DNA of 64,000 nucleotides from assembly GCA_016209685.1 (NCBI GenBank), contig JACQVQ010000012.1:823-64822 (forward strand), given 5' to 3'. Below, piece after piece: positions 3,887-64,000 of the stretch (position 1 is its first letter; the number at the start of each line of letters is the position of its first letter). A program made the position numbers and the translations under genes. The notes under the pieces are model-generated. The model did no database searches. It saw only the letters and a program-made list of their open reading frames with translations, and was not told the DNA's origin. The DNA is from Planctomycetota bacterium. GTDB lineage: Bacteria > Planctomycetota > Brocadiia > Brocadiales > Bathyanammoxibiaceae.

Positions 3887-6196
3887 ATGAAAGGACTTGC
3901 ACAGATGCAAAAGTTTAAGTTGTCTGCCATGATGCTACTAGCCCTGGTGGGGCTGTCCGCCTTAGGCGGATTAGGGAGTGCCTTTGCCGGGGTTGCCCAC
4001 GGGACCGGGACCTCCCCGGAGGAATTGCCGAAGCTGTGGTATCTTGCCCCATTAGGTGCCCTCATGGGATTGGTATTCGCCTTCAAATACTACCGGGGGG
4101 TCATGGCCTCTCCCCCGGGGAACAAGCTCATGGTGGAGATAGCAGGCCACGTAAAGGAAGGGGCCTATGCCTACCTGAGGCAACAGTATAAGGTAGTGGC
4201 AGGCATCTTCCTGTTAATGGCCATTGTGTTATCCATATTAGCCTTCGTGCTTGATATACAATCCAGACTGGTACCCTTCGGTTTCCTGTCCGCTGGTACC
4301 CTGTCTGGGTTGGCGGGTTTTCTTGGTATGCGGATTGCCACCCAGGCCAGTTCCCGTACTGCCGAGGCCGCGAGGCACTCACTTAACCGTGGCCTCCAGG
4401 TGGCCCTCCATAGTGGGGCCGTTATGGGGCTAGTGGTAGTGGGTTTGGCCCTTTTAGACCTTTCTCTATGGTTCTTCGTCCTGCGCCACTATACTAATCT
4501 CTCTCTTGACCATATCGTCCTGAGCATGCTCTGCTTCGGCATGGGCGCCAGTTTCCAGGCCCTCTTTGCCAGGGTAGGGGGGGGCATCTACACCAAGGCC
4601 GCTGACGTCGGTGCAGACCTGGTAGGCAAGGTGGAGGCCAACATCCCCGAAGATGACCCCAGAAACCCTGCCGTCATTGCAGATAATGTTGGCGATAACG
4701 TTGGGGACGTAGCGGGCATGGGTGCGGACCTATATGAGTCCTATTATGGTTCTATCCTGGCCGCCAACGCCCTGGGGGTGACTGCTGGTCTTGGGATTAA
4801 GGCCGTAGTCCTGCCCATGTCTCTAGCAGGCCTGGGCGTCATACTATCCATAATAGGCTTTTTTGTGGTGAGGACCCCCGAGCACGTCTCACAAAAGGCC
4901 CTCTTACAGGCCTTTGGTAGAGGGGTTAATCTGAGTTCTTTCCTGATACTAATCGTCTCAGCCGTGCTTATATACGTCCTCGTACCTGAGCACCTTGGCC
5001 TCTGGGGCTCTATCGCCTCGGGGCTTATTGCAGGGGTAATCATTGGCAGAATCACGGAATATTACACCTCGGACGCCTATTCCCCCACAAGAGAGATAGC
5101 TGACTCCGCACTAACGGGCCCCGCTACAGTAATCCTCTCTGGCATATCTAGCGGGATGCTCTCCACTGCCATGGCAGGCGTCACCATTGCCCTGGGGATT
5201 CTGCTGGCCTTCACCTTTGCAGAGGGATTTGCTAACCTCACGTTAGGACTCTATGGCATTGCCATTGCCGCCGTGGGGATGCTCTCCACCCTGGGGATAA
5301 CCCTGGCCACCGATGCCTACGGTCCGGTGGCCGATAATGCGGGGGGTAATGCCCAGATGAGTGGTCTCCCACCAGAAGTAAGGGAGAGGACTGAGATGCT
5401 GGACGCCCTAGGCAATACCACTGCGGCCACCGGGAAGGGTTTTGCCATCGGCTCGGCGGCCCTGACTGCCATGGCCTTGCTGGCCGCCTACGTAGGGGAG
5501 ATTCACGTGGCCTTAGAGAGGGGCGGCGTGGATAAGCTGACCCTCAATGGACGCACCGTTGACGTACATACGGCCAGTTTTATGGACTTTATGGAATACT
5601 ATAACGTAACCCTGATGAACCCCAAGGTGTTGGTGGGTATCATGTTAGGGGCCATGGTATCCTTTGTCTTTAGTGCCCTGGCCATCCGTGCTGTGGGAAG
5701 GGCGGCCCAGAGGATGGTGGAAGAGGTCAGGAGGCAGTTCCGAGAGATAAAAGGTATTATGGAAGGTAAGGCTAAGCCGGATTATGCCGCCTGCGTGGCC
5801 ATCAGCACTAGTGGCGCCCAGAGGGCGATGATGCTCCCAGCCACGCTAGCCATACTTATGCCTGTGGCGGTGGGCCTACTCCTTGGAGTCCCTGCCGTGA
5901 TGGGACTTCTGGTAGGGTCCTTGTCTACTGGTTTTCTGCTGGCCATATTCATGGCCAACTCCGGGGGCGCCTGGGACAATGCGAAGAAGTATATAGAGAG
6001 GGGAGCACACGGTGGGAAGGGATCTCCCGCCCATAAGGCAGCTGTGGTGGGCGATACAGTGGGTGACCCGTTTAAGGATACCGCCGGCCCCTCCCTGAAC
6101 ATCCTTGTCAAGCTTATGGCTATAGTCTCTGTAGTCTTTGCCGGGGTGGTAGTGAGTTATTCGCCAAAGATATCTGCCCTCTTGCATCTGCAATAG
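3887..6196 (+). CDS. hppA: membrane-bound H+(or Na+)-translocating pyrophosphatase
   Basis: 769 aa polytopic protein with GDNVGDVAGMGADLYESY, DNAGGNAQM and GGAWDNAKKYIE signature segments. Confidence 0.95.
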   Translation: MKGLAQMQKFKLSAMMLLALVGLSALGGLGSAFAGVAHGTGTSPEELPKLWYLAPLGALMGLVFAFKYYRGVMASPPGNKLMVEIAGHVKEGAYAYLRQQYKVVAGIFLLMAIVLSILAFVLDIQSRLVPFGFLSAGTLSGLAGFLGMRIATQASSRTAEAARHSLNRGLQVALHSGAVMGLVVVGLALLDLSLWFFVLRHYTNLSLDHIVLSMLCFGMGASFQALFARVGGGIYTKAADVGADLVGKVEANIPEDDPRNPAVIADNVGDNVGDVAGMGADLYESYYGSILAANALGVTAGLGIKAVVLPMSLAGLGVILSIIGFFVVRTPEHVSQKALLQAFGRGVNLSSFLILIVSAVLIYVLVPEHLGLWGSIASGLIAGVIIGRITEYYTSDAYSPTREIADSALTGPATVILSGISSGMLSTAMAGVTIALGILLAFTFAEGFANLTLGLYGIAIAAVGMLSTLGITLATDAYGPVADNAGGNAQMSGLPPEVRERTEMLDALGNTTAATGKGFAIGSAALTAMALLAAYVGEIHVALERGGVDKLTLNGRTVDVHTASFMDFMEYYNVTLMNPKVLVGIMLGAMVSFVFSALAIRAVGRAAQRMVEEVRRQFREIKGIMEGKAKPDYAACVAISTSGAQRAMMLPATLAILMPVAVGLLLGVPAVMGLLVGSLSTGFLLAIFMANSGGAWDNAKKYIERGAHGGKGSPAHKAAVVGDTVGDPFKDTAGPSLNILVKLMAIVSVVFAGVVVSYSPKISALLHLQ

Positions 6197-6197
6197 G

Positions 6198-6262
6198 AGA
6201 ATTCAGTAGTCAGTAGTCAGAATTCAGGATATTCTTTATTCTGAATTCTGTATTCTGAGTTC
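6198..6262. repeat. heptamer-periodic hairpin element (CAGAATT/CAGTAGT flavour)
   Basis: The sequence GAATTCAGTAGTCAGTAGTCAGAATTCAGG is followed by a short loop and then TCTGAATTCTGTATTCTGAG. It lies between the hppA stop and the rsfS 5' end. Confidence 0.8.
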
Positions 6263-6653
6263 CGAGGTTAGAGGTACGTTAGAGCCTAAAGAAATCGCCC
6301 AGCTATTCGCCCAGATAGCCGATAATAAAAAGGCCGAGGACGTCGTCATCCTTGACCTGCGCAGGCTTACTTTCTTTACGGAGTTCTTTGTCATCTGCAG
6401 TGGTATAAATCCCCGGCAACTCCAGGCCATCGTTGATGAGATAGGGAAGGAGGCGAGGGAGCGGGGTCTATCCAAGCTAGCAATAGAAGGCTACCACGAG
6501 GCTAGATGGATACTCCTTGACTACGGCGACGTTATTATGCACCTCTTCAACAAAGAGGCCCGCCATTTTTATGACCTGGAACTCCTCTGGGGCGATGCCC
6601 CCAGGGTAAAGTGTCACCCTGCTAAGACGGCAGGAAAGACAGGCAACAAGTAA
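6252..6653 (+). CDS. rsfS: ribosomal silencing factor RsfS (start codon uncertain, no canonical start in frame)
   Basis: Hand translation: ...EPKEIAQLFAQIADNKKAEDVVILDLRRLTFFTEFFVICSG...WILLDYGDVIMHLF...FYDLELLW, typical RsfS/iojap. Stop TAA at 6651. Not in the ORF track because there is no ATG/GTG/TTG between stop 6216 and the conserved core. Confidence 0.75.
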   Translation: MLSSEVRGTLEPKEIAQLFAQIADNKKAEDVVILDLRRLTFFTEFFVICSGINPRQLQAIVDEIGKEARERGLSKLAIEGYHEARWILLDYGDVIMHLFNKEARHFYDLELLWGDAPRVKCHPAKTAGKTGNK

Positions 6654-6730
6654 CAAGAAACAGGTAACAGGCAACAGGTTACAGGAAAAGAAATTTTTAC
6701 CTGTCCCCTGTTTCCTGTCCCCTGTTTCCT
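6631..6730. repeat. heptamer-periodic hairpin element (AACAGGN flavour)
   Basis: AACAGGC AACAAGT AACAAGA AACAGGT AACAGGC AACAGGT TACAGGA, then CTGTCCC CTGTTTC CTGTCCC CTGTTTC. The left arm encodes the rsfS C-terminal residues. Confidence 0.8.
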
Positions 6731-9500: not shown

Positions 9501-9568
9501 AAGAATACAGAATTCAGAATATAGAATTCTTTTTATTCTGACTACTGACTTCTGAATTCTGAATACTG
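9501..9568. repeat. heptamer-periodic hairpin element (CAGAATT flavour)
   Basis: AAGAATACAGAATTCAGAATATAGAATTC ... TTCTGACTACTGACTTCTGAATTCTGAATACTG. Confidence 0.8.
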
Positions 9569-10656: not shown

Positions 10657-10740
10657 AATTACAAATTTCATATTACAAATTTCAAATTTGGAATTTGATT
10701 TTAATTTGTAATTTGCAATCAGAAATTTGCAATTAGATTT
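10657..10740. repeat. heptamer-periodic hairpin element (AATTTCA/TTGCAAT flavour)
   Basis: AATTACA AATTTCA TATTACA AATTTCA AATTTGG AATTTGA TTTTAAT TTGTAAT TTGCAAT CAGAAAT TTGCAAT TAGATTT. Confidence 0.85.
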
Positions 10741-11987: not shown

Positions 11988-12293
11988 AAAGAAGGGCATG
12001 TTTAAAAGGCATTACACTGCAAAGATATTTAATAGAGGTCTCTGAAAAATGCCCAGCGTGTCATTCTGAACCGCCAAAGGCAGGGAAACTGCACCACGGA
12101 AAATCAACCACTTACGTTCGCTCAAATTGCCTAAATGAGACTTTTTTTAGGGTTGGGCAACAGCCTCTCCATATACTCCACACCGCAATCCGCAATTCCT
12201 GTTTACAATCTCCCCTGGTAGTGTTAATATCCTTCACGGTTTGGGGCCTCAGCCCCCAGGTTGAAAATCTGCCTCGGACGGGGCGAATTCAAA

Positions 12294-13334
12294 ATGAACT
12301 ACACCCTCAGAGAGATATGCACTATAACAGGTGGGACCCTGGTGGGGGACGGCGACACCAGGATAACCGGGGTGGCAAGCCTTGAGGGGGCAAGACAAGG
12401 GGATATTACCTTTGTGAAGGGGGAGGAGTTCATAGAAAAGGCCCTCAAGACCAGGGCCTCTGCCCTCGTGGTCCACAGGGAGATAAAGGAGTTTAAATCC
12501 GCCCCTTCGCTACGCTCAAGGGCAGGCTTGGGCGGACAGATAGTCGTAAAGGACCCCTTCCTTGCATTTGTAAAAATACTGGAGGTCTTCTCGCAGGAGA
12601 GGGGCAAACGTCACAGGGGTATTCACCCCCCGACCCTGGTGGCAAAGACTGCTACTATCGGCAGGGAGGTCTCCATCGGGGCCTACTCTGTTATTGAAGA
12701 GGGGGCCGTGATTGGTGACAGGGCCACCCTCTATCCCATGGTCTATATAGGACACAATACGAAGGTAGGAGAAGATACGCTCATTTATCCCATGGTCTCC
12801 ATCAGAGAAGAGGTCTCCATAGGTAAACGGGTGATAATCCATTCCGGTACTACCATCGGCGGGGACGGCTTCGGCTATTTACAGGTAGAGGGACGCCACG
12901 TAAAGATACCACAGGTAGGCACCATTGAGATTGGAGACGACGTGGAGATAGGCTGTAACGTTACCATAGCCAGGGCAACCCTGGATAAGACGGTAATAGC
13001 CAGGGGGGTAAAGATTGATAACCACTCCCATATTGCCCACAATGTCATTATTGGCGAGGATACCATGCTCATCGCCTACGCCAAGATTGCCGGGGGTGCG
13101 GTGATTGGTAAGAACGTAATGATTGCCGAGGACGTGGGCATTACAGACCACGCCACTATTGGAGATAACTGCGTGATTGGGGGCGGGTCAAACGTCTATA
13201 AGAGCCTACCTCCTGGCTCGGTGGTCTGGGGCTCCCCCGCAAAGCCCATAATGGAAGAAAAGAGGCTTCAAGTCTTGCTCCGTAAATTACCGAAAATGTG
13301 GGAGACATTAAAAAGGTTTGGTAACCTCCGATAA
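12294..13334 (+). CDS. lpxD: UDP-3-O-acylglucosamine N-acyltransferase
   Basis: N-terminal LpxD domain (GDGDTRITGVASLEGARQGDITFV) plus a long left-handed beta-helix of hexapeptide repeats. The 3' end is duplicated in diverged form at 13889-14026. Confidence 0.9.
   Translation: MNYTLREICTITGGTLVGDGDTRITGVASLEGARQGDITFVKGEEFIEKALKTRASALVVHREIKEFKSAPSLRSRAGLGGQIVVKDPFLAFVKILEVFSQERGKRHRGIHPPTLVAKTATIGREVSIGAYSVIEEGAVIGDRATLYPMVYIGHNTKVGEDTLIYPMVSIREEVSIGKRVIIHSGTTIGGDGFGYLQVEGRHVKIPQVGTIEIGDDVEIGCNVTIARATLDKTVIARGVKIDNHSHIAHNVIIGEDTMLIAYAKIAGGAVIGKNVMIAEDVGITDHATIGDNCVIGGGSNVYKSLPPGSVVWGSPAKPIMEEKRLQVLLRKLPKMWETLKRFGNLR
12498..12536. repeat. 39-nt element with inverted termini, in frame within lpxD
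   Basis: TCCGCCC-cttcgctacgctcaagggcaggctt-GGGCGGA encodes SAPSLRSRAGLGG. Its core resembles ccttcggcaggctcagggcag at 15507. Confidence 0.4.
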
Positions 13335-13340
13335 TAAATA

Positions 13341-13562
13341 ATGGAAATATACCTGAGCAGGCATGCAAGAAGGCAAATGAAGTGGAGAAAAATCTCCGAG
13401 GAAGAAATTAAAGACACCGTTCTCCATCCAGAAGAAATAGAAGATTCAATAAAAGGCCGAAAGAATGCATTCAAACGTGTCGGACAAAAATGGCTGAAGG
13501 TGACATTCGTAAAGGAAAATGATAAAATAATCATAATTACGGTAATTGATAAAAACAAATAG
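13341..13562 (+). CDS. DUF4258-family protein (putative toxin component)
   Basis: MEIYLSRHARRQMKWRKISEEEIKDTVLHPE matches the H-A-x-x-R-M-x-x-R-x-I-S N-terminus typical of DUF4258. Confidence 0.65.
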   Translation: MEIYLSRHARRQMKWRKISEEEIKDTVLHPEEIEDSIKGRKNAFKRVGQKWLKVTFVKENDKIIIITVIDKNK

Positions 13563-13570
13563 GAGAAACA

Positions 13571-13816
13571 ATGAAGATTGAATATGACAGAGAAGTAGAT
13601 GCACTTTATATCAGGATACAAGAAAAAGAGGTTTCACGAACCAAAGAAGTCGCAGAGGGCGTAAACCTTGATATAGATGAGGAGGGAAAAATTATAGGTC
13701 TTGAGATTGTAGGTGCTACTGAAAGATACAGCCTGAAGGATATTTTAAACATCTCAACCGAAAACTTGATACTTGAAGAACTCCCCAAGCAAAAAACAGT
13801 AAGCAGTAAGGACTAA
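13571..13816 (+). CDS. DUF2283-family protein (putative antitoxin component)
   Basis: MKIEYDREVDALYIRIQ...NLDIDEEGKIIGLEIVGA matches the DUF2283 pattern. It lies 8 nt after the DUF4258 gene. Confidence 0.65.
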   Translation: MKIEYDREVDALYIRIQEKEVSRTKEVAEGVNLDIDEEGKIIGLEIVGATERYSLKDILNISTENLILEELPKQKTVSSKD

Positions 13817-13818
13817 GC

Positions 13819-13877
13819 AGGATTTCGGATTTGGAATTTATAAATTCACAATTCCAAATTCCAAATTCGCAATTTCT
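13819..13877. repeat. heptamer-periodic hairpin element (GGATTTC/CCAAATT flavour)
   Basis: GGATTTCGGATTTGGAATTTATAAATTCACAATTCCAAATTCCAAATTCGCAATTTC. Confidence 0.8.
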
Positions 13878-13888
13878 CCACAATCCCA

Positions 13889-14026
13889 GTCGTATGGGGC
13901 TCCCCAGCCAAACCTATAATGGAGGAAAAACGACTCCAGGCCCTATTAAAGAAACTGCCAGAGATGCGAGAGACACTGAAGGAGATTGCAAGGGTCTTAA
14001 AGGAAAAAGGGCTTATTGGGAATTAG
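13889..14026 (+). pseudogene. lpxD: displaced 3' end of lpxD (45 codons plus stop, no 5' part)
   Basis: Hand translation VVWGSPAKPIMEEKRLQALLKKLPEMRETLKEIARVLKEKGLIGN-stop aligns with the lpxD C-terminus VVWGSPAKPIMEEKRLQVLLRKLPKMWETLKRFGNLR-stop. Confidence 0.8.
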
Positions 14027-14037
14027 TAATTTTTTTC

Positions 14038-14072
14038 TCTACTCCCTACTCCCTAATCCCTAGCCCCTAGTT
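14038..14072. repeat. C-rich heptamer run (single arm)
   Basis: TTTTTTTCTCT ACTCCCT ACTCCCT AATCCCT AGCCCCT AG. This is the complement of the TAGGGGN ... AGAGAAAAAAA type. Confidence 0.7.
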
Positions 14073-15206
14073 CTACTTCCCCACCCCCACCGGCTCCAGT
14101 ACCTTCCGTACGGTGAACCGCTTGTCTAGCTTGTTCATCTTGTCCACTATGCCGCCGTACTCTAGCTCATCGTAGGGGAGCATGGCGGGGCCGCTGAAGC
14201 CCTGTCTCCTTATCTCGGTGGCCTTCTGGGACACGTTGTTCCTGACCCAGTCCCAGTAGGGGTGGTCAAAGGCGTCGGCAGGCTCGGTAAGCTTCCCGTT
14301 GTGCACGCAGAAGGCCGCACATGTCACCACCACAGGGCCATCAAAATAGGAGATGGTCGTGTTCTGTTTGCATGGCATCATGGGACCGTTGTGACTGCCC
14401 CTCATGGTGCCGGCACAGTAGTGGCCGATACTGAACGGGGAGAGGACTTCTCCCGTGGCGGGGAAGTTGGATTGACACCTGACCAGCATCACAGGGTCGT
14501 CTTTCCCTACGTATTTCCCGGCAATGTTGTGCAGCCTGGTGGTACTGACTGAGGCCGCTATGTCTCCTGTGGTCCTGGACCAGATAGACTCTACCACAAA
14601 CCGGGAATTATCCCGTAAGAGGGCGGCTATGTCATACATCTCCTCCGGGGCGTTGAGTTCTATGACCCTGTCCCCTTTCGTGTGGTTTACGTCCATAATG
14701 ACAAACTTGAAGCCCTTGGCTAGGGAAGGGGCAAGCATAAGGCCGGCACAGTGCATGGGGTCAACAAAGGATAGAAAGAGGGGGAGGTTATAGGCCCCCG
14801 GCTCCGTCTTATCGGCGGCAAAGAAGAGGAAGGACTCGTTGGGTCTCTCCTCAATCTCCATCTCTGCCGTAGAGGGCCCCAGACCTTTTACGTTACCAGA
14901 GAAGGCGTCTTTAAGGAGGTCCTGCCCGGCGCCATAAAGTCCCTGTTCCTTGGCCACCCGTGTACCCGCCTGGAAGGCGTCCCAGGCCATGCGATGCACG
15001 TCTTCATTTAAGGTACCCCTGGTATGGGTAGTAAGTATGGCAATGTCATCTCCCGTAGAACTAATGAATGAATCAATTAGTAGCCCCTTCTTTTTACCGT
15101 TTGTCTCTACAAAATCCCGCACCGCCTGGAGCACCTTTGCGCTGGGTTTTATATGACCTCCAATAGAGCCAATGTCAGCCTTTATCACGCTTAAGGTTAT
15201 TTTCAT
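14073..15206 (-). CDS. fbp: bifunctional fructose-1,6-bisphosphate aldolase/phosphatase (class V FBPase)
   Basis: MKITLSVIKADIGSIGGH N-terminus and overall 377-aa pattern typical of the archaeal/deep-branching bacterial FBP aldolase/phosphatase. Confidence 0.9.
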   Translation of the reverse strand: MKITLSVIKADIGSIGGHIKPSAKVLQAVRDFVETNGKKKGLLIDSFISSTGDDIAILTTHTRGTLNEDVHRMAWDAFQAGTRVAKEQGLYGAGQDLLKDAFSGNVKGLGPSTAEMEIEERPNESFLFFAADKTEPGAYNLPLFLSFVDPMHCAGLMLAPSLAKGFKFVIMDVNHTKGDRVIELNAPEEMYDIAALLRDNSRFVVESIWSRTTGDIAASVSTTRLHNIAGKYVGKDDPVMLVRCQSNFPATGEVLSPFSIGHYCAGTMRGSHNGPMMPCKQNTTISYFDGPVVVTCAAFCVHNGKLTEPADAFDHPYWDWVRNNVSQKATEIRRQGFSGPAMLPYDELEYGGIVDKMNKLDKRFTVRKVLEPVGVGK

Positions 15207-15336
15207 GACTCATCCTCTCTCTAGCCTTGGGTTATACAACAAAAGATTTAGTGTTTTATCCATTAGCTATACTATCGTAAATTTATATATCAAAATCATT
15301 AAAAATCAAGCACCAAAATTTTATGCCAAGAAGAAA

Positions 15337-20627: not shown

Positions 20628-20635
20628 AATACAAT

Positions 20636-20695
20636 AGACCATAGACTAAAAATCCAAAGTCCATAGTCTAAAGTCCTTAGTCCAAAGTCTAAAGA
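20636..20695. repeat. heptamer-periodic element (AAAGTCY flavour)
   Basis: ATAGACC ATAGACT AAAAATC CAAAGTC CATAGTC TAAAGTC CTTAGTC CAAAGTC TAAAGAG. Confidence 0.75.
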
Positions 20696-23228: not shown

Positions 23229-23346
23229 GAACTAGAATTAAGAATTCAGAAGTCAGAATTCAGTAGCCAGGATAAAGAACGGTCGTCCCAAATTCTGAAT
23301 TCTGACTACTGACTTCTGTATTCTTTCCCTGGCCCCTAACCCCTAA
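23211..23346. repeat. nested heptamer-periodic hairpin (G-rich outer layer, CAGAATT inner layer)
   Basis: GTAGGGG GTAGGGG ATAGGAA CTAGAAT TAAGAAT TCAGAAG TCAGAAT TCAGTAG CCAGGAT AAAGAAC GGTCGTC CCAAATT CTGAATT CTGACTA CTGACTT CTGTATT CTTTCCC TGGCCCC TAACCCC. Confidence 0.85.
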
Positions 23347-28799: not shown

Positions 28800-28823
28800 T
28801 CCCCTCTTTTTAGAGGGGACACA

Positions 28824-28872
28824 CCCCTACCCCCTAATCCCTACCCCCTAATCCCTACCCCCTACCCCCTAG
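28824..28872. repeat. C-rich heptamer run (single arm), preceded by CCCCTCTTTTTAGAGGGG hairpin
   Basis: CCCCTAC CCCCTAA TCCCTAC CCCCTAA TCCCTAC CCCCTAC CCCCTAG. Overlaps the moaA stop. Confidence 0.8.
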
Positions 28873-29906
28873 CCACCTATCCGGCACATGACGGCCTCGC
28901 CTGTACCAGGGTGCTCGGCAGGCTTCAGGACGGCGGCCTCCAGGAAGGCCCTCTTTATAGCCTCTGGTGTGGGATTACCCCTGAGGATGGCCCTTATGTC
29001 CACCTCGCCCCCAGCCAGGAGGCATGCCCTAAGTTTGCCATCTGAGGTGAGCCTGAGGCGGTTGCAGTCCCCACAGAAGGGCTGACTTACGGGAGAGATG
29101 AAGCCCAGGGTGCCTACGGCCCCCTTCAGTCTGTAAAGTCTGGCAGGTCCACGTAGGGGCAGTAGGGACAGGTCCCGCCCAAAAGATGGCGGATTTTCAA
29201 CTTTAGACCTGTCCCTATTGGACGGACCTAAAGGTCTGTTCCTACCTACAGGTATTAATTCCCCAAGACGGCTTATCCTTTCCATGACCTCTTTGCTGGG
29301 CACGAACTTGCGCTCTTCAATCATCCTGCATCCGAAGGCCATATACTCTATGAACCTCACCTCCAGTGGTTTCTCCAGGCTCATACGGGCAAACTCTTCT
29401 ACCTCATCCTCATTGGTGCCCCGCATAACTACCATATTTACCTTTGTCTCCTGGAACCCCACGTGCAGTGCCTCCTCTATGCCCTGGAGGACGTCTGAGA
29501 TGGAGCCCCCCCCTGTAATCTGGCGGAAGCGGTCTGCCCTGAGGCTGTCCAGGCTGACGTTCAACCGCATGAGACCCGCCTCCTTTAGGACGGCGGCATA
29601 TTGTCTCAAGAGGACGCCGTTGGTAGTCATGGCCAGGTCTTCTATCCCAGGGATTTTACTCAGGGAGGCAACGAGACGTTCTACGTTTCTCCTCGTGAGG
29701 GGTTCGCCACCTGTCAGCCTGATACTCCGTATGCCCAGTTCGGCACCGTACTTTACTACAGTGGCTATCTCCTCAAAGCTAAGGATATCCTTACGCTCCA
29801 GATGAGGGACACCCTGGGAGGGCCTACAGTAGACGCAGGAGAGGTTGCAGAGGTCTGTTACCGAGACCCTTAGACGTGTTACATTTCTTTGAAAGCGGTC
29901 CTGCAT
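28869..29906 (-). CDS. moaA: GTP 3',8-cyclase (molybdenum cofactor biosynthesis protein A) with ~30-aa internal insertion
   Basis: CNLSCVYCRP radical SAM motif, GGEPL, C-terminal FCGDCNRLRLTSDGKLRACL cluster. Confidence 0.9.
   Translation of the reverse strand: MQDRFQRNVTRLRVSVTDLCNLSCVYCRPSQGVPHLERKDILSFEEIATVVKYGAELGIRSIRLTGGEPLTRRNVERLVASLSKIPGIEDLAMTTNGVLLRQYAAVLKEAGLMRLNVSLDSLRADRFRQITGGGSISDVLQGIEEALHVGFQETKVNMVVMRGTNEDEVEEFARMSLEKPLEVRFIEYMAFGCRMIEERKFVPSKEVMERISRLGELIPVGRNRPLGPSNRDRSKVENPPSFGRDLSLLPLRGPARLYRLKGAVGTLGFISPVSQPFCGDCNRLRLTSDGKLRACLLAGGEVDIRAILRGNPTPEAIKRAFLEAAVLKPAEHPGTGEAVMCRIGG
29160..29255. repeat. two tandem REP-like palindromes in frame inside moaA
   Basis: Minus strand reads GTAGGAACAGACCTTTAGGTCCGTCC, then TAGGGACAGGTC-(CCGCCatcttttGGGCGG)-GACCTGTCCCTAC. 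Encodes GRNRPLGPSNRDRSKVENPPSFGRDLSLLPL. Confidence 0.75.
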
Positions 29907-29915
29907 TTTTAGACA

Positions 29916-29969
29916 AAGAATTCAGAATACAGGATTCTGAATTCTGCATTCTGAACGCTGAATTCTGGG
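29916..29969. repeat. heptamer-periodic hairpin element (CAGAATT flavour)
   Basis: AAAGAATTCAGAATACAGGATTCTGAATTCTGCATTCTGAACGCTGAATTCTGGG. Confidence 0.8.
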
Positions 29970-32512: not shown

Positions 32513-32570
32513 ATTGTAAATTGTAAATTAGAAATTTAAAATTTGAAATTTACAATTTCCAATTTACAAT
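32513..32570. repeat. heptamer-periodic hairpin element (TTGTAAA flavour)
   Basis: ATTGTAAATTGTAAATTAGAAATTTAAAATTTGAAATTTACAATTTCCAATTTACAAT. Confidence 0.85.
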
Positions 32571-32609
32571 TCTTTTCCCCTTCCCATACTGCTTCCTGCC
32601 TGCTACCCC

Positions 32610-47796: not shown

Positions 47797-47870
47797 TCAG
47801 GGACCAGGGGACAGGGAACAGGGACTAGGGAAAAAGATTACTGACCCCTGATCCCTGACCTCTGACCCCT
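47797..47870. repeat. heptamer-periodic hairpin between nuoD and nuoE (CAGGGRN flavour with GGGAAAAAGATT junction)
   Basis: CAGGGAC CAGGGGA CAGGGAA CAGGGAC TAGGGAA AAAGATT ACTGACC CCTGATC CCTGACC TCTGACC CCT. Confidence 0.85.
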
Positions 47871-52627: not shown

Positions 52628-52803
52628 AGGGGATAGGGACAGTAAGCAGAAATCCAAATGCCAAAATCCAAATGCCTAATGAAGTCCAAAATCCAAATTC
52701 CAAATTTGACATTTAGGCTTTGACATTTGGATTTCATTTGAACTTTGGACTTTGGCATTTTGCATTTCTAATCCTGCCTACTGCCTACTATTTCTAGCCC
52801 CTA
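52628..52803. repeat. nested heptamer-periodic hairpin (G-rich/CAGTAGG outer layer, AAATCCA/AAATGCC inner layer), ~25 units
   Basis: AAATCCA AATGCCA AAATCCA AATGCCT AATGAAG TCCAAAA TCCAAAT TCCAAAT TTGACAT TTAGGCT TTGACAT TTGGATT TCATTTG AACTTTG GACTTTG GCATTTT GCATTTC. Confidence 0.85.
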
Positions 52804-54437: not shown

Positions 54438-54500
54438 ATTGTAAAATGAAGATTGAAAATTTTAAATTTAAAATTTCCAATTTTCAATTTTCAATTTTAT
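54438..54500. repeat. heptamer-periodic hairpin element (TTGAAAA/TTTTCAA flavour)
   Basis: ATTGTAAAATGAAGATTGAAAATTTTAAATTTAAAATTTCCAATTTTCAATTTTCAATTTT. Confidence 0.8.
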
Positions 54501-56617: not shown

Positions 56618-56715
56618 GAATGCGGAGTGCGGAATGCAGAATGCGGAATTAAATTCCGCACTCCGCACTCCCCATTCCGCACTCGGAACGCATTCCGAAT
56701 TCCGCACTTTGAATG
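56618..56715. repeat. heptamer-periodic hairpin element (GAATGCG flavour), 14 units
   Basis: GAATGCG GAGTGCG GAATGCA GAATGCG GAATTAA ATTCCGC ACTCCGC ACTCCCC ATTCCGC ACTCGGA ACGCATT CCGAATT CCGCACT TTGAATG. Confidence 0.9.
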
Positions 56716-61563: not shown

Positions 61564-63846
61564 ATGATGAAAGAGACGATAAGCAGACAGGTTAAGAAAA
61601 GTATCATCCTGAAACAACTCGCACTGACTATCCCGTTAAACGCCCTTTTCGTAGCCCTCCTGGTCCTGGGGTTTTATACCGTATTTACACTGAGGGGGGA
61701 CGCAACAGGCATAAATTATGCAGGTCAGCTACGCTCCCGCTCTCATGAACTGGCCTTACAAATCACTGAATACCCTGCCCTGCAGGGGGGTGCAAGGGAT
61801 GGTGCCCGCAGTGCCATACTTGGCCAGATGGATGAATTTGAGAAGATTTTGTACGGCCTGAGAGACGGCAATAAGGCCTTGGGCCTTAGGGGTTTCAAGA
61901 TGCCCCCAAAAGGGGCGGATTTTAGTTACAATGACCCCTGGTGGCAATTTGATAGACACGTTGAAAACTATAACCGGAGGATGAAGCCTTTAATCCTGCA
62001 CGTCCTGGAATCCCCTAACCAGGAAGAGGCAAAGGAGTCCCTTAAGATATATAGTAAAAATGTCTCTGCCTTCGTAGGTGATTCGGACAGCACGGTACGT
62101 CTGCTGCAATCGTTGTCGGAAAAAAAGATATCATGGTTCAAGAATACAGAGTTTGTACTCCTGGGCCTGTTTCTGGGTATATTAGGGGGTTCTTTCTTTC
62201 TGTCCACAGTCTTCATACAAAGACCATTTCTGGACGTACTTAAAGGGACTACGGCCTTCAGCCGTGGGGACCTAAACTACAGGATACCTGTTAGACGCAG
62301 GGACGAGATGGGCATCCTGGCCAGTAGCTTTAACGATATGGCTACGGCCCTTAAAAGTAAGGTGGCGGAGGTACAGGCCACCCGTGACTTACTCAATGAG
62401 GTGTTAGGTGGCATAGGCTGTCTTGTAAGGATTGTAGACCCTAAGGCACACAGGGTAACTTTTCAGAGTAAATCTCTACAGGCCATCTACCCCGAGGGGT
62501 TAAAACGTCATTGCTACACCATATTGGGGAGAGAGACGGCATGTGAACGCTGTACCAGTACGGAGGCTATTGAAAAGAGGAAGGATTTCTGCAAAGAAGA
62601 GGAGGCGGCCACCGGGGGTGTCTTTTACGAGATACATTCCTTCCCCTTTCCTAACCCCGATGGCAGTATAACTAGTGCCATTGAGGTGATAAGAGACATT
62701 ACGGCCCGTAAGAAGGCGGAATGGGAAGTCCAGACGAGCCAGAACCTGGTCAACGAGGTGTTAGGTAGCATAGGCTGTTTTGTAAGGATAGTAAACCCTA
62801 AGACTCACAAGGTAATCTTTCAAAATAGACCCCTGGAGGCCGTCTACCCCCAGGGGCTGGAACGTCATTGCTACACCTTATTGGGGAGTGAGACGCCGTG
62901 TGAACGCTGTACCAGCATGGAGGCTATTGAAAAGAGGAAGGATTTCTGCAAAGAGGAGGAGGCGGCCAATGGGGGTGTCTTTTACGAGATACATTCCTTC
63001 CCCTTCCCCAACCCAGATGGCAGTATAACTACTGCCATTGAGGTGATAAGGGATATTACGTCTCGCAAGAAGATGGAGGGGGAGTTGGAGGACTCCAGGA
63101 TGCGACTGCTGGAGTCTCAAAAGATGGTCACCGTTGGGAACCTTACCCTCGGTATAGCCCATCATATAAATAATCCCCTGTCAGGGATAAACATGTCTGC
63201 CGACATCCTCCTTAAAGAGATAGATGGGGCAAAAGAGTGTGTCCATTCAGAAGACCTTATAAGCCACCTGAGGAGGATAAAAGAGGCAGGGGGGCGTTGT
63301 GAGATGGTGATGAAAGACCTCCTCAATATATCCAGGTTGCCCAAATTAAGGAAACTACCTACTCACGTGAACGAGGCCGTGGAGCACGCCCTAAACGTGA
63401 TGGTTCCTCAACTGGAACTTTCAAAAATCAAGCTGGTAAAAGAGCTTTCTGATACGGCCCCCAAGATCCTTGGCAGTCGTAGCCAGTTGGAAACGGTGTT
63501 TATGAACATCATCTCTGGTGCCATAAACGAGATGCCTGAAGGGGGTACGCTGACTGTCAGGACGGAGTACCTCTCCAGTGAAGACAAGGTTGAAGTAACC
63601 ATCGCAGATACAGGCCGTGGAATCAATAAAAATGACTTACCCTCACTCTTTGACCCCTACTTTATCCTCAAGATTCGGCCATCTATTAAGGGTACGGGGC
63701 TGGAGCTATCCCTTGCCCAGTTGACTGTTCAATCCCATGGGGGCACCATAGAGGCAGATTCAGAGGAGGGGAAGGGTACGACCTTCGGGGTGAAACTACC
63801 TGCCTGTAAGGAGACCAGCCCGGCGGGAGTAGGGAGTAGGGGGTAG
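61564..63846 (+). CDS. membrane sensor histidine kinase (PilJ/NarX-like periplasmic domain, HAMP, two Cys-rich PAS modules, HisKA, HATPase)
   Basis: ATG 61564 follows GGAGG. INYAGQLRSRSHELA sensor box, HAMP (RRDEMGILASSFNDMA), duplicated PAS, H-box IAHHINNPLSGI, DTGRGI and GTGLEL. Confidence 0.85.
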   Translation: MMKETISRQVKKSIILKQLALTIPLNALFVALLVLGFYTVFTLRGDATGINYAGQLRSRSHELALQITEYPALQGGARDGARSAILGQMDEFEKILYGLRDGNKALGLRGFKMPPKGADFSYNDPWWQFDRHVENYNRRMKPLILHVLESPNQEEAKESLKIYSKNVSAFVGDSDSTVRLLQSLSEKKISWFKNTEFVLLGLFLGILGGSFFLSTVFIQRPFLDVLKGTTAFSRGDLNYRIPVRRRDEMGILASSFNDMATALKSKVAEVQATRDLLNEVLGGIGCLVRIVDPKAHRVTFQSKSLQAIYPEGLKRHCYTILGRETACERCTSTEAIEKRKDFCKEEEAATGGVFYEIHSFPFPNPDGSITSAIEVIRDITARKKAEWEVQTSQNLVNEVLGSIGCFVRIVNPKTHKVIFQNRPLEAVYPQGLERHCYTLLGSETPCERCTSMEAIEKRKDFCKEEEAANGGVFYEIHSFPFPNPDGSITTAIEVIRDITSRKKMEGELEDSRMRLLESQKMVTVGNLTLGIAHHINNPLSGINMSADILLKEIDGAKECVHSEDLISHLRRIKEAGGRCEMVMKDLLNISRLPKLRKLPTHVNEAVEHALNVMVPQLELSKIKLVKELSDTAPKILGSRSQLETVFMNIISGAINEMPEGGTLTVRTEYLSSEDKVEVTIADTGRGINKNDLPSLFDPYFILKIRPSIKGTGLELSLAQLTVQSHGGTIEADSEEGKGTTFGVKLPACKETSPAGVGSRG
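62401..63114 (+). repeat. tandem duplication (2 x 357 nt) of a PAS-module coding segment
   Basis: Unit 1 starts at GTGTTAGGTGGCATAGGCTGT (62401) and unit 2 at GTGTTAGGTAGCATAGGCTGT (62758). Long near-identical stretches follow (GAACGCTGTACCAG...GAGGCTATTGAAAAGAGGAAGGATTTCTGCAAAGA). Confidence 0.9.
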
Positions 63847-64000
63847 GGACCAGGAATTGCGGATTTCGGATTGCGGAATGTGGATTTAAAAATTCGCAAT
63901 TCCAAATTTATAGTGAACTCTACGTAGTTCACTATTCGCAATTCTTCTACACCCAACCCTCTACACTCTAGTCCTTAGCCCCCAGTTTCTACTACCCATC
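63846..64000. repeat. heptamer-periodic nested hairpin element running to the window edge
   Basis: GTAGGGA CCAGGAA TTGCGGA TTTCGGA TTGCGGA ATGTGGA TTTAAAA ATTCGCA ATTCCAA ... ATTCGCA ATTCTTC TACACCC AACCCTC TACACTC TAGTCCT TAGCCCC. Confidence 0.8.

Follow-up and report, generated by a model that had tools for sequence, protein, structure and literature searches.

The window analysed here, a 64,000-nt stretch of contig JACQVQ010000012.1 from a bacterium of the Brocadiales, the anammox order of Planctomycetota, carries a small toxin-antitoxin (TA) cassette within the 3' end of lpxD, the gene for UDP-3-O-acylglucosamine N-acyltransferase. Comparison with related genomes indicates that lpxD now ends on an imported tail and that its native tail lies unused behind the cassette. 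All sequences used are metagenome assemblies. The gene spans 12294 to 13334 on the plus strand and encodes 346 aa with Pfam LpxD and Hexapep domains; its product matches the P. aeruginosa and E. coli LpxD structures at E 6e-58, and the closest LpxD, at 96%, comes from the metagenome-assembled genome RIFCSPHIGHO2_12_FULL_52_36. It is a hybrid gene, native up to ~13259 and foreign over the last 25 codons. Relative to relatives with an empty site, the inserted block measures 668 nt (13260–13927) and it interrupts the best-conserved stretch of the lpxD 3' region (VVWGSPAKPIMEEKR). Read along the plus strand, the block holds the foreign lpxD tail KRLQVLLRKLPKMWETLKRFGNLR-stop (13260–13334), a DUF4258 gene (13341–13562, 73 aa), a DUF2283 gene (13571–13816, 81 aa), a 72-nt spacer (13817–13888) and codons 0–12 of an lpxD end that is not native (13889–13927), and it codes for the TA pair only. 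To its left stand codons 0–12 of the native sequence, VVWGSPAKPIMEE (13221–13259, plus strand), which together with the foreign tail make up copy 1 of the lpxD end, and to its right stands the displaced native tail, KRLQALLKKLPEMRETLKEIARVLKEKGLIGN-stop (13928–14026, plus strand), which together with 13889–13927 makes up copy 2. An earlier sequence-only reading of this stretch had supposed that a small element entered the 3' end of lpxD carrying its own replacement end, and the empty sites and the foreign in-frame tail described below bear this out.

Both copies of the lpxD end reported in that reading exist, but their register was 3 nt off: position 13221, and not 13224, pairs with 13889, so that copy 1 (GTG GTC TGG, VVW) runs codon for codon with copy 2 (GTC GTA TGG), both as VVWGSP.... 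Over codons 0–30 the two copies share 27 of 31 residues. The onset of similarity is abrupt at codon 0, the preceding 12 codons being unrelated between the copies. Since the best ungapped match in the 2 kb downstream of lpxD reaches 27/31, as against a maximum of 10/31 in 300 shuffles, and tblastn finds the duplicated end at E 5e-14, the match is not due to chance; a similarity at chance level would have undone the earlier reading. Its statement that identical residues are encoded with synonymous changes also holds, although the count is different, with 11 codons differing in the first 17 (VVWGSPAKPIMEEKRLQ) rather than about 9 of 16. The two copies share no identical stretch longer than 11 nt (TGGGGCTCCCC), and the 39-nt zone of codons 0–12 is 82% identical, its differences falling by codon position as [0,0,7]. 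In another insertion-bearing locus, L092, the two copies differ over codons −18 to 12 at 16 of 93 nt, by codon position [2,0,14]. Because these within-genome differences are almost only at third positions, the two copies diverged as functional genes in separate lineages.

The question of which C-terminus is ancestral, raised by the sequence-only reading, is answered by the relatives. The comparison covered 80 lpxD loci, each from a different species, and for the 50 closest the LpxD tail was read. Among the 80 loci, the duplication of the lpxD end occurs only in the window type and the L001 type; among the 50, every Brocadiales LpxD tail except that of L001 is of the downstream-copy type (...KKLPEMRETLKE...), and only L001 has a surrogate-type tail. 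At the empty sites L003 (95% LpxD identity) and L006, lpxD ends on a copy-2-type tail and is followed by fbp, and L002 (92% LpxD identity), L004, L005 and L007 likewise have lpxD with a copy-2-type tail. Since the relatives carry the downstream-type tail, the downstream copy is the displaced native, ancestral end, and the in-frame tail arrived with the cassette. Window positions 12153–13259 align to L003 4355–5439 and window positions 13889–15321 to L003 5401–6831, with an overlap of 39 nt. The window lpxD shares 92–95% nucleotide identity with L001, L002 and L003 up to 13259, where the identity breaks. The right conserved flank is formed by fbp (fructose-1,6-bisphosphate aldolase/phosphatase, class V, FBPase_3; 14073–15206 on the minus strand, convergent with lpxD; Pfam E 1e-160), which is 94–96% identical to the same three loci, and overall the window flanks differ from them by 4–8%.

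Against this background the in-frame tail stands far apart. It differs from every natural tail at 20–28 of 60 nt (codons 13–32) and from every natural Brocadiales tail at 28–36 of 72 nt (codons 13–36), and among insertion-bearing genomes it varies at only 1–3 of 60 nt (codons 13–32). The displaced tail is closest to that of L002 (8/60 nt over codons 13–32), and its last 38 nt together with the downstream flank are near-identical to L003 and to the insertion-bearing L197. Since the divergence of the tails greatly exceeds the 4–8% divergence of the flanks, the in-frame tail is not an in-situ duplicate and comes from another lineage; with the two tails of the window 33/72 nt apart, the earlier notion of two independently evolved lpxD ends, rather than a fresh duplication, is upheld. 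The left parts of the copies show the reverse relationship. The left part of copy 1 has 0–1 mismatches in 39 nt with the empty-site L003 and 7 with copy 2, and the left part of copy 2 lies 7–9 of 39 nt from window copy 1, L003 and L002, all differences being synonymous and at third positions, and resembles instead more distant lineages, L004 and L005, at 4/39 nt. The relationships of the two copies thus swap right of ~13260 in copy 1 and ~13928 in copy 2, and both copies look chimeric, with a switch point within 13248–13262 and 13916–13930, respectively. Because of this swap, the foreign material is the contiguous stretch 13260–13927, and by the order of its parts this block is a circular permutation of an "lpxD 3' fragment + TA + spacer" unit. 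The segment between the copies had been described as richer in A+T, and the base composition agrees: G+C is 36.6% in the TA genes, 37.4% in the block 13260–13927 and 40% in the foreign tail, compared with 53.7% in the lpxD body, 54.9% in fbp and 52–55% in the surroundings overall.

The displaced native tail has kept its reading frame. In the window it is readable as a 35-codon open reading frame (ORF) from the ATG at 13919 (13919–14026), and in every variant the frame is intact from an internal Met or from further upstream (for example, L103 3488–3586 and L197 1021–1206). Differences among the displaced copies of the variants are biased to third positions ([3,3,14]), which is explained here by recombination with functional alleles, and a retained micro-ORF in the displaced tail may exist. 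For annotation, short "orphan" ORFs of this kind, such as 13919–14026, which gene callers report as 32–61-aa genes, are displaced gene ends.

The DUF4258 and DUF2283 genes named in the sequence-only reading are confirmed by Pfam (PF14076 at E 7e-11, above the gathering score, and PF10049 at E 7e-19). Their ORFs are adjacent, co-directional and 8 nt apart, with the toxin first. The toxin gene starts 6 nt past the lpxD stop, and given this gap the TA genes are probably co-transcribed with lpxD; a promoter and terminator scan gave nothing above shuffle expectation. A search found 214 homologues of the toxin. In 77 of 80 metagenome loci retrieved with the toxin, a DUF2283 gene comes directly after the toxin homologue; the remaining three contigs end within ~45 nt of the toxin gene. 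DUF4258 has been placed among the BECR-fold TA toxin families (PMC11980606; bioRxiv 10.64898/2026.08.28.747851), with the family function listed as unknown, and the modules here show the same small adjacent genes as BECR / RelE-ParE-related type II TA modules, in toxin-first order as opposed to the listed A/T order (PMC11980606). A sequence search for a solved-structure relative of the DUF4258 protein found none. We predict that the pair is a type II TA module, with an RNase-type toxin of this recognised fold family and the DUF2283 protein as antitoxin; both the toxicity and its neutralisation are part of that prediction. Searches of viral contigs (with the protein and two DNA patterns), of phage records and of plasmid records gave no match to the cassette.

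Related TA pairs at other loci are often flanked by repeats as well. At 21 of 48 such loci (from the set L117–L196), the 700 nt before the pair and the 700 nt after it share a direct repeat, a strong enrichment over the 8 of 240 random control positions. At the distant loci, outside lpxD and the JAB-peptidase locus described below, these repeats resemble interspersed elements of non-coding or hairpin type (e.g. L165, L142/L143, L192 and L195), and a TA relative at a type II secretion system (T2SS) locus, L113, has no flanking repeat. Homology of the cassette across loci starts ~10 nt before the toxin ATG. A 14-mer, GATAATAAATAATG, ends at this ATG in the window (13328–13341) and in L092 (1030–1043). 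It recurs just past the displaced lpxD stop in L092 (1775–1788) and in L090, not in the window, and at least its first 11 nt stand at the same post-stop place in L001; a similar sequence, ATAATAATG, precedes the toxin gene at the T2SS locus. The 14-mer could be the footprint of a primary insertion or a part of the homology arm.

Other samples hold six structural variants of the lpxD insertion, which show it decaying. The fullest is L093 (Logan SRR21677143), in which a long surrogate tail (...GNLPKQKAE-stop) is followed by 95 nt, the TA pair, a spacer of TAGTGCC heptamers and a copy 2 that begins 19 codons further upstream. L092, L090, L086 and L091 (Logan and Hainich groundwater, ENA) share with the window the 95-nt deletion after the tail and have the long copy 2. 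In the L001 type, whose toxin was listed in 35 index blocks of the collection (24 contigs were read for recombinases), the long tail is kept and the spacer and the first 7 copy-2 codons are lost. In L197 (GCA_038068475.1), the toxin gene is mostly deleted and carries a ~150-nt palindromic insert, and the antitoxin gene has an 8-nt deletion; in L200 (Logan SRR22387823), a related insert stands right after the toxin gene. This insert is a MITE-like (miniature inverted-repeat transposable element) sequence (...GTCATTGCGAGCGAAGCGAAGCAATCTC...GAGATTGCTTCGGGGCTTCGCCCCTCGCAACGAC...) at L197 470–650 and L200 1086–1147. In L082, 131 extra nt in the toxin gene include a run of N and were treated as a scaffolding artefact. 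The longer tail (...SNLLKQKAE-stop) with the 95 nt is present in L001, L093 and L200, in which ~80 nt between the in-frame stop and the cassette have no counterpart after copy 2, and in L093 and L092 an lpxD arm of ~180–270 nt, from codon −19 to 14 nt past the stop, lies on both sides of the TA pair. Set against these forms, that of the window is derived: 95 nt behind the tail are deleted, the spacer has been exchanged and copy 2 is shorter. By its TA pair and tail, the window groups with L086 (99.2%), L090 and L092, whereas its copy-2 end and intergenic flank place it with L003 and L197; L001, L090 and L092 share another flank type. This incongruence between element and flank, along with the third-position bias of the displaced copies, argues for recombinational spread or repeated integration among related populations. 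No recombinase gene was found, among Pfam hits and called genes, within ~4–6 kb on either side on the identical public contig DBJWYT010000035, and neither a recombinase gene nor extra cargo on any variant contig read.

The spacer varies both among the variants and among the loci. That of the window replaces the TAGTGCC-heptamer spacer and a 57-nt lpxD fragment of other variants, the TAGTGCC form being seen in L086, L090, L092, L093 and L197. The AAATTCC/GGATTTC heptamer hairpin that the sequence-only reading noted is present at 13822–13873 (DNA fold −10.8 kcal/mol, z = −3.3), but it is neither specific to this element nor an att site, since heptamer arrays occur genome-wide. Period-7 arrays stand at ~25 apparently intergenic sites in the window, often as two inverted arrays able to fold as a hairpin, with a unit that differs by site. 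The same class takes in the hairpin, the native CTACTCC array in the lpxD-fbp intergenic region (14039–14069, identical in L197) and, in the L092-type variants, the TAGTGCC spacer. As an element-specific site the hairpin was rejected, there being no second copy in the window or the first 80 loci and arrays being ubiquitous. The insert ends carry no terminal inverted repeats, and the duplication, of at least 39 nt, is of a gene end; on these two grounds the insert is unlike a transposon, insertion sequence or MITE.

A second case was found upstream of a JAB/MPN peptidase gene. Outside the lpxD locus, the TA pair closest to that of the window (P0006; 77% toxin and 80% antitoxin identity) is in L094, with a PALP gene on one side and the peptidase gene on the other. 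It is flanked by two copies of the JAB 5' end, which comprise 76 nt at 96% identity preceded by 49 nt that are ~45% diverged. The contig L198, with protein P0122, provides the empty site and confirms the native JAB N-terminus: L198 1–1565 corresponds to L094 4377–5941 and L198 1490–2678 to L094 6635–7823, both at 99.7%, and the insertion is evidently recent. The L094 insert of 769 nt consists of a 58-nt leader, the TA pair, a 127-nt spacer and a foreign JAB 5' end; no recombinase gene lies within it. The intact JAB gene uses the foreign N-terminus (LLKLNKDLVDEIK), of a type found in other Brocadiales, and the native one (MLRLEQGQMDKIK) is left at the head of a truncated fragment. The 76-nt repeats match the L198 target at 73–76 of 76 nt (1–3 mismatches, one of them polymorphic in empty sites), whereas at lpxD each repeat copy matches the single-copy target over a part only and the rest is foreign. 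Furthermore, the contig L099 (ENA ERZ4903125 k141_3983371) contains, at 834–980, a head-to-tail junction of the JAB-locus element, in which the spacer is followed by the foreign JAB 5' end, a 76-nt repeat with a hybrid pattern of single-nucleotide polymorphisms (SNPs), the leader and the toxin start again, the second leader copy having a SNP of its own. The junction is known from this one contig of 980 nt; it points to a tandem array or a circle that arose when the repeats recombined. The statement of the sequence-only reading that no recombinase remains is correct in that none was found; the word "remains" may mislead, since the JAB case, by analogy, suggests that the cassette never carried one in cis.

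Our preferred reading, at even odds, is that the lpxD insertion arose by a Campbell-type single crossover, in which a tiny TA-bearing DNA entered by homology with the lpxD end and was then held by addiction. The crossover would have joined the chromosomal lpxD and a small TA-bearing DNA, probably a ~0.8-kb circle or a tandem-repeat intermediate, whose lpxD 3' fragment would have been its only homing arm. Host homologous recombination would perform the integration without an element-encoded integrase, and since the arm contains the gene end, a complete essential gene would be regenerated. Flanking direct repeats would normally permit loop-out, but cells that lose the TA pair should suffer post-segregational toxicity, and thus the insertion would persist. 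It would then spread among related Brocadiales populations via ordinary recombination in the flanks, and its erosion would now be visible as tail deletion and spacer replacement in the window and as toxin deletion and palindromic inserts elsewhere.

Several points weigh against this scenario. For the lpxD element, neither a free circle nor a head-to-tail junction was seen, L099 being from the JAB locus. The switch zone, with 82% identity over 39 nt and a longest run of 11 nt, is a poor RecA substrate today, so that the first event would have needed a partner of higher identity or a different route. Between variants, the left part of copy 2 is not constant (7/39 nt differ between the window and L092), for which later allelic exchange or gene conversion is needed. 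The near-identical 76-nt repeat at JAB fits a simple target duplication as well as a Campbell event. Finally, no donor lineage for the foreign tail came to light: the one protein that a 44-aa tail query brought back, P0121, was rejected as the source because it is another displaced copy 2. More speculatively, and as a possibility that we hold only tentatively, DUF4258/DUF2283 pairs may form a minimal recombinase-free class of mobile elements, each a TA pair with a 100–270-nt gene-end homing arm, cycling between tandem or circular and integrated states via host recombination, always regenerating its target, which can be essential, and protected by addiction. If this is true, TA cassettes would be self-propagating elements that remodel core-gene termini, and not passive cargo.

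The strategy is the one used by islands and prophages at tRNA and tmRNA genes, where integration takes place in the 3' end of a conserved gene and an element-borne copy restores that gene. Such elements use tyrosine integrases and short identical cores inside the RNA genes, neither of which is present here. The sequence-only reading had presented the protein-gene target as the departure from that scheme; a housekeeping protein gene is indeed the target, but this is not new, since e14 already does so at icd/icdC in E. coli. There e14 supplies a substitute icd 3' end and the native end survives as the icdC fragment (PMC13626634, citing Hill, Gray and Brody 1989). Most differences between the two ends are synonymous, and excision recombines them into a chimeric gene (PMC13626634). 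The lpxD case shares with e14 and phage 21 in icd the substitute 3' end and the displaced native fragment. However, e14 is ~15 kb long and has its own integrase and excisionase and a defined att core, whereas the elements here are 0.67–0.83 kb, carry TA genes only and have neither a recombinase gene nor an identical core, and, unlike e14, the sister cassette of the lpxD element uses an unrelated gene. Closer in lifestyle are addiction-type restriction-modification modules, for which "insertion with long target duplication" has been described (Nobusato et al. 2000; Furuta, Abe and Kobayashi 2010, PMC2853133). These insertions have no mobility gene, direct repeats of >30 bp of variable length and a single-copy target in the empty-site genome, and a life cycle of invasion, tandem amplification via the repeats and release has been proposed for them (PMC2853133). 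The JAB locus is a close fit, with its 76-nt repeat, empty site and head-to-tail junction, and addiction-module repeats of >30 bp without mobility genes are seen at both loci (at least 31 codons in the window, ~180 nt in L092/L093, and 76 nt plus 49 diverged nt in L094). The present insertions differ in carrying a TA pair and in having gene ends as repeats, with one repeat copy partly foreign, and their hosts are uncultivated Brocadiales. Homology-facilitated illegitimate recombination in natural transformation, reportedly the subject of work by de Vries and Wackernagel in 2002 and by Prudhomme et al. in 2002, has the same single homologous anchor in a conserved gene segment, but it usually gives deletions at the illegitimate end. 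We know of no description of it as a recurrent TA-cassette vehicle that regenerates an essential gene. What differs from the known cases is the TA-only cargo, the partly foreign gene-end repeats that replace core-gene termini, and a target gene that may be essential.

Capture, by such recombination, of a linear donor of the form "lpxD tail + TA + spacer" is the main rival, and we regard it as rather unlikely. It would have recombined on the left in the conserved VVWGSPAKPIMEEKR block and been joined illegitimately upstream on the right, duplicating recipient DNA; in this proposal the TA pair of the donor genome would have stood immediately behind a divergent lpxD belonging to that donor. The left switch point does fall within the most conserved lpxD 3' block, and the right junction varies as an illegitimate join would, lying at codon −19 in L092, L093 and L197, at codon 0 in the window and at codon 7 in L001, but these differing junctions may be later deletions, L093 having the full form and the others subsets of it. 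The JAB repeat, 76 nt near-identical to the target with only the TA-adjacent part foreign, is what duplicated recipient DNA would look like. At lpxD, however, linear capture predicts identical copies left of the crossover, and within one genome 16 of 93 nt differ, nearly all synonymously. Both independent loci moreover show a duplication of similar size and not the usual deletions, and the L099 head-to-tail junction is not predicted, though later unequal crossing-over could give one. A remnant of a site-specific prophage or island is improbable, even though a substitute lpxD end in its attP, followed by deletion of the integrase and cargo with the TA pair left between attL and attR, would reproduce the architecture of e14/icd/icdC, with its hybrid gene, element and displaced 3' fragment. 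The variants do show ongoing deletion, and TA pairs often outlive their mobile elements. On the other hand, no variant contig carries a recombinase or extra cargo, the longest common run of 11 nt leaves no identical att core, the viral, phage and plasmid collections gave no matches, and the sister cassette was recently inserted as a 769-nt unit without an integrase, one att-specific enzyme being unfit for both lpxD and the JAB gene.

Two further explanations are very improbable, and we give them next to no weight. One is that the lpxD 3' end was duplicated in situ and in tandem, whether or not the TA pair was inserted separately, and that the two copies then diverged. This would account for direct repeats flanking the cassette, and the long target duplications documented for restriction-modification genes (PMC2853133) are a precedent for it. 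It is contradicted by tails 33/72 nt apart in a window only 5–7% from its empty-site sister genomes, with empty sites at 93–95% flank identity; by the third-position bias, which is not expected of an unconstrained duplicate; and by the ~80 nt after the in-frame stop in L001, L093 and L200 that lack a counterpart after copy 2. An integron-type gene cassette at a secondary site, with the hairpin as attC, is just as hard to credit. TA pairs are common as integron cassettes, the hairpin follows the antitoxin gene, and the excess of flanking direct repeats at related TA loci (21/48 versus 8/240 controls) speaks for it. Nevertheless, no RYYYAAC...GTTRRRY ends were seen in 13817–13888, by eye and with no formal attC scan; the hairpin is one of ~25 heptamer arrays of the window, with an unrelated spacer in other variants; the spacers read have no shared downstream site (the region past the antitoxin gene was not aligned across loci); and the substitute lpxD tail is left unexplained.

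Returning to the Campbell-type crossover, its interest lies in how TA pairs move. Chromosomal TA pairs act like mobile cassettes, yet usually without a mobility gene, and how they pass from genome to genome has been a puzzle for a long time. The two independent loci described here, each known in empty and occupied form and one of them also joined head to tail, point to a testable route, in which a gene-end fragment would serve as the homology arm, host recombination would integrate the DNA and addiction would block reversal. In the LpxDs studied, the C-terminal helix is the part that binds acyl carrier protein and forms the trimer. The window suggests that, in an essential lipid A enzyme, this helix can give way to another that is ~45% different in DNA, provided that the hybrid LpxD is active, as we infer, and the N-terminus of the JAB peptidase was likewise swapped. 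Selfish cassettes may thus be a source of sudden variation at core-gene ends.

The gap between lpxD and fbp is, in the loci compared, a recurrent insertion spot that is variable among relatives. In L002, an unrelated minus-strand gene for a 227-aa membrane protein (1444–2127) lies between the two genes, and in L004 a 197-aa lipoprotein-like ORF (5010–5603), lpxD being untouched in both. L003 has a 2-nt deletion in the lpxD tail at 5437–5440 (...ATGGAAG--AAGCG...), which frameshifts the last 30 codons and may be an assembly error, the contig coverage being ~5x. On the other side of the gene, synteny with the L001-type genomes (L102–L109) ends exactly at the lpxD start codon (window 12293, L001 6000), with cinA upstream in the window and a divergent PALP/ThiS pair in the L001-type contigs. 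Within LpxD, codons ~70–77 of the window gene (~12500–12525) encode eight extra residues, PSLRSRAG, that are also present in L001 and absent from L002 (...EFKSALGGQ...). Rich in G+C, these codons look like a repeat element in translation, but no second copy was found in the window.

Elsewhere in the window, a tblastx self-comparison of the 64 kb found no other gene-end duplication. Examples of the period-7/14 arrays lie at 6203–6262, 6639–6730, 9502–9562, 10657–10737, 20634–20694, 23234–23324 and 28823–28879, and further ones at 29918–29967, 32526–32571, 47798–47870, 52650–52768, 54452–54499, 56618–56684 and 63825–63886. A 357-nt tandem duplication at 62393–63072 (1.9 copies, 87% identical, ~72% when translated in one frame) appears to lie inside a PAS/histidine-kinase-like coding region.

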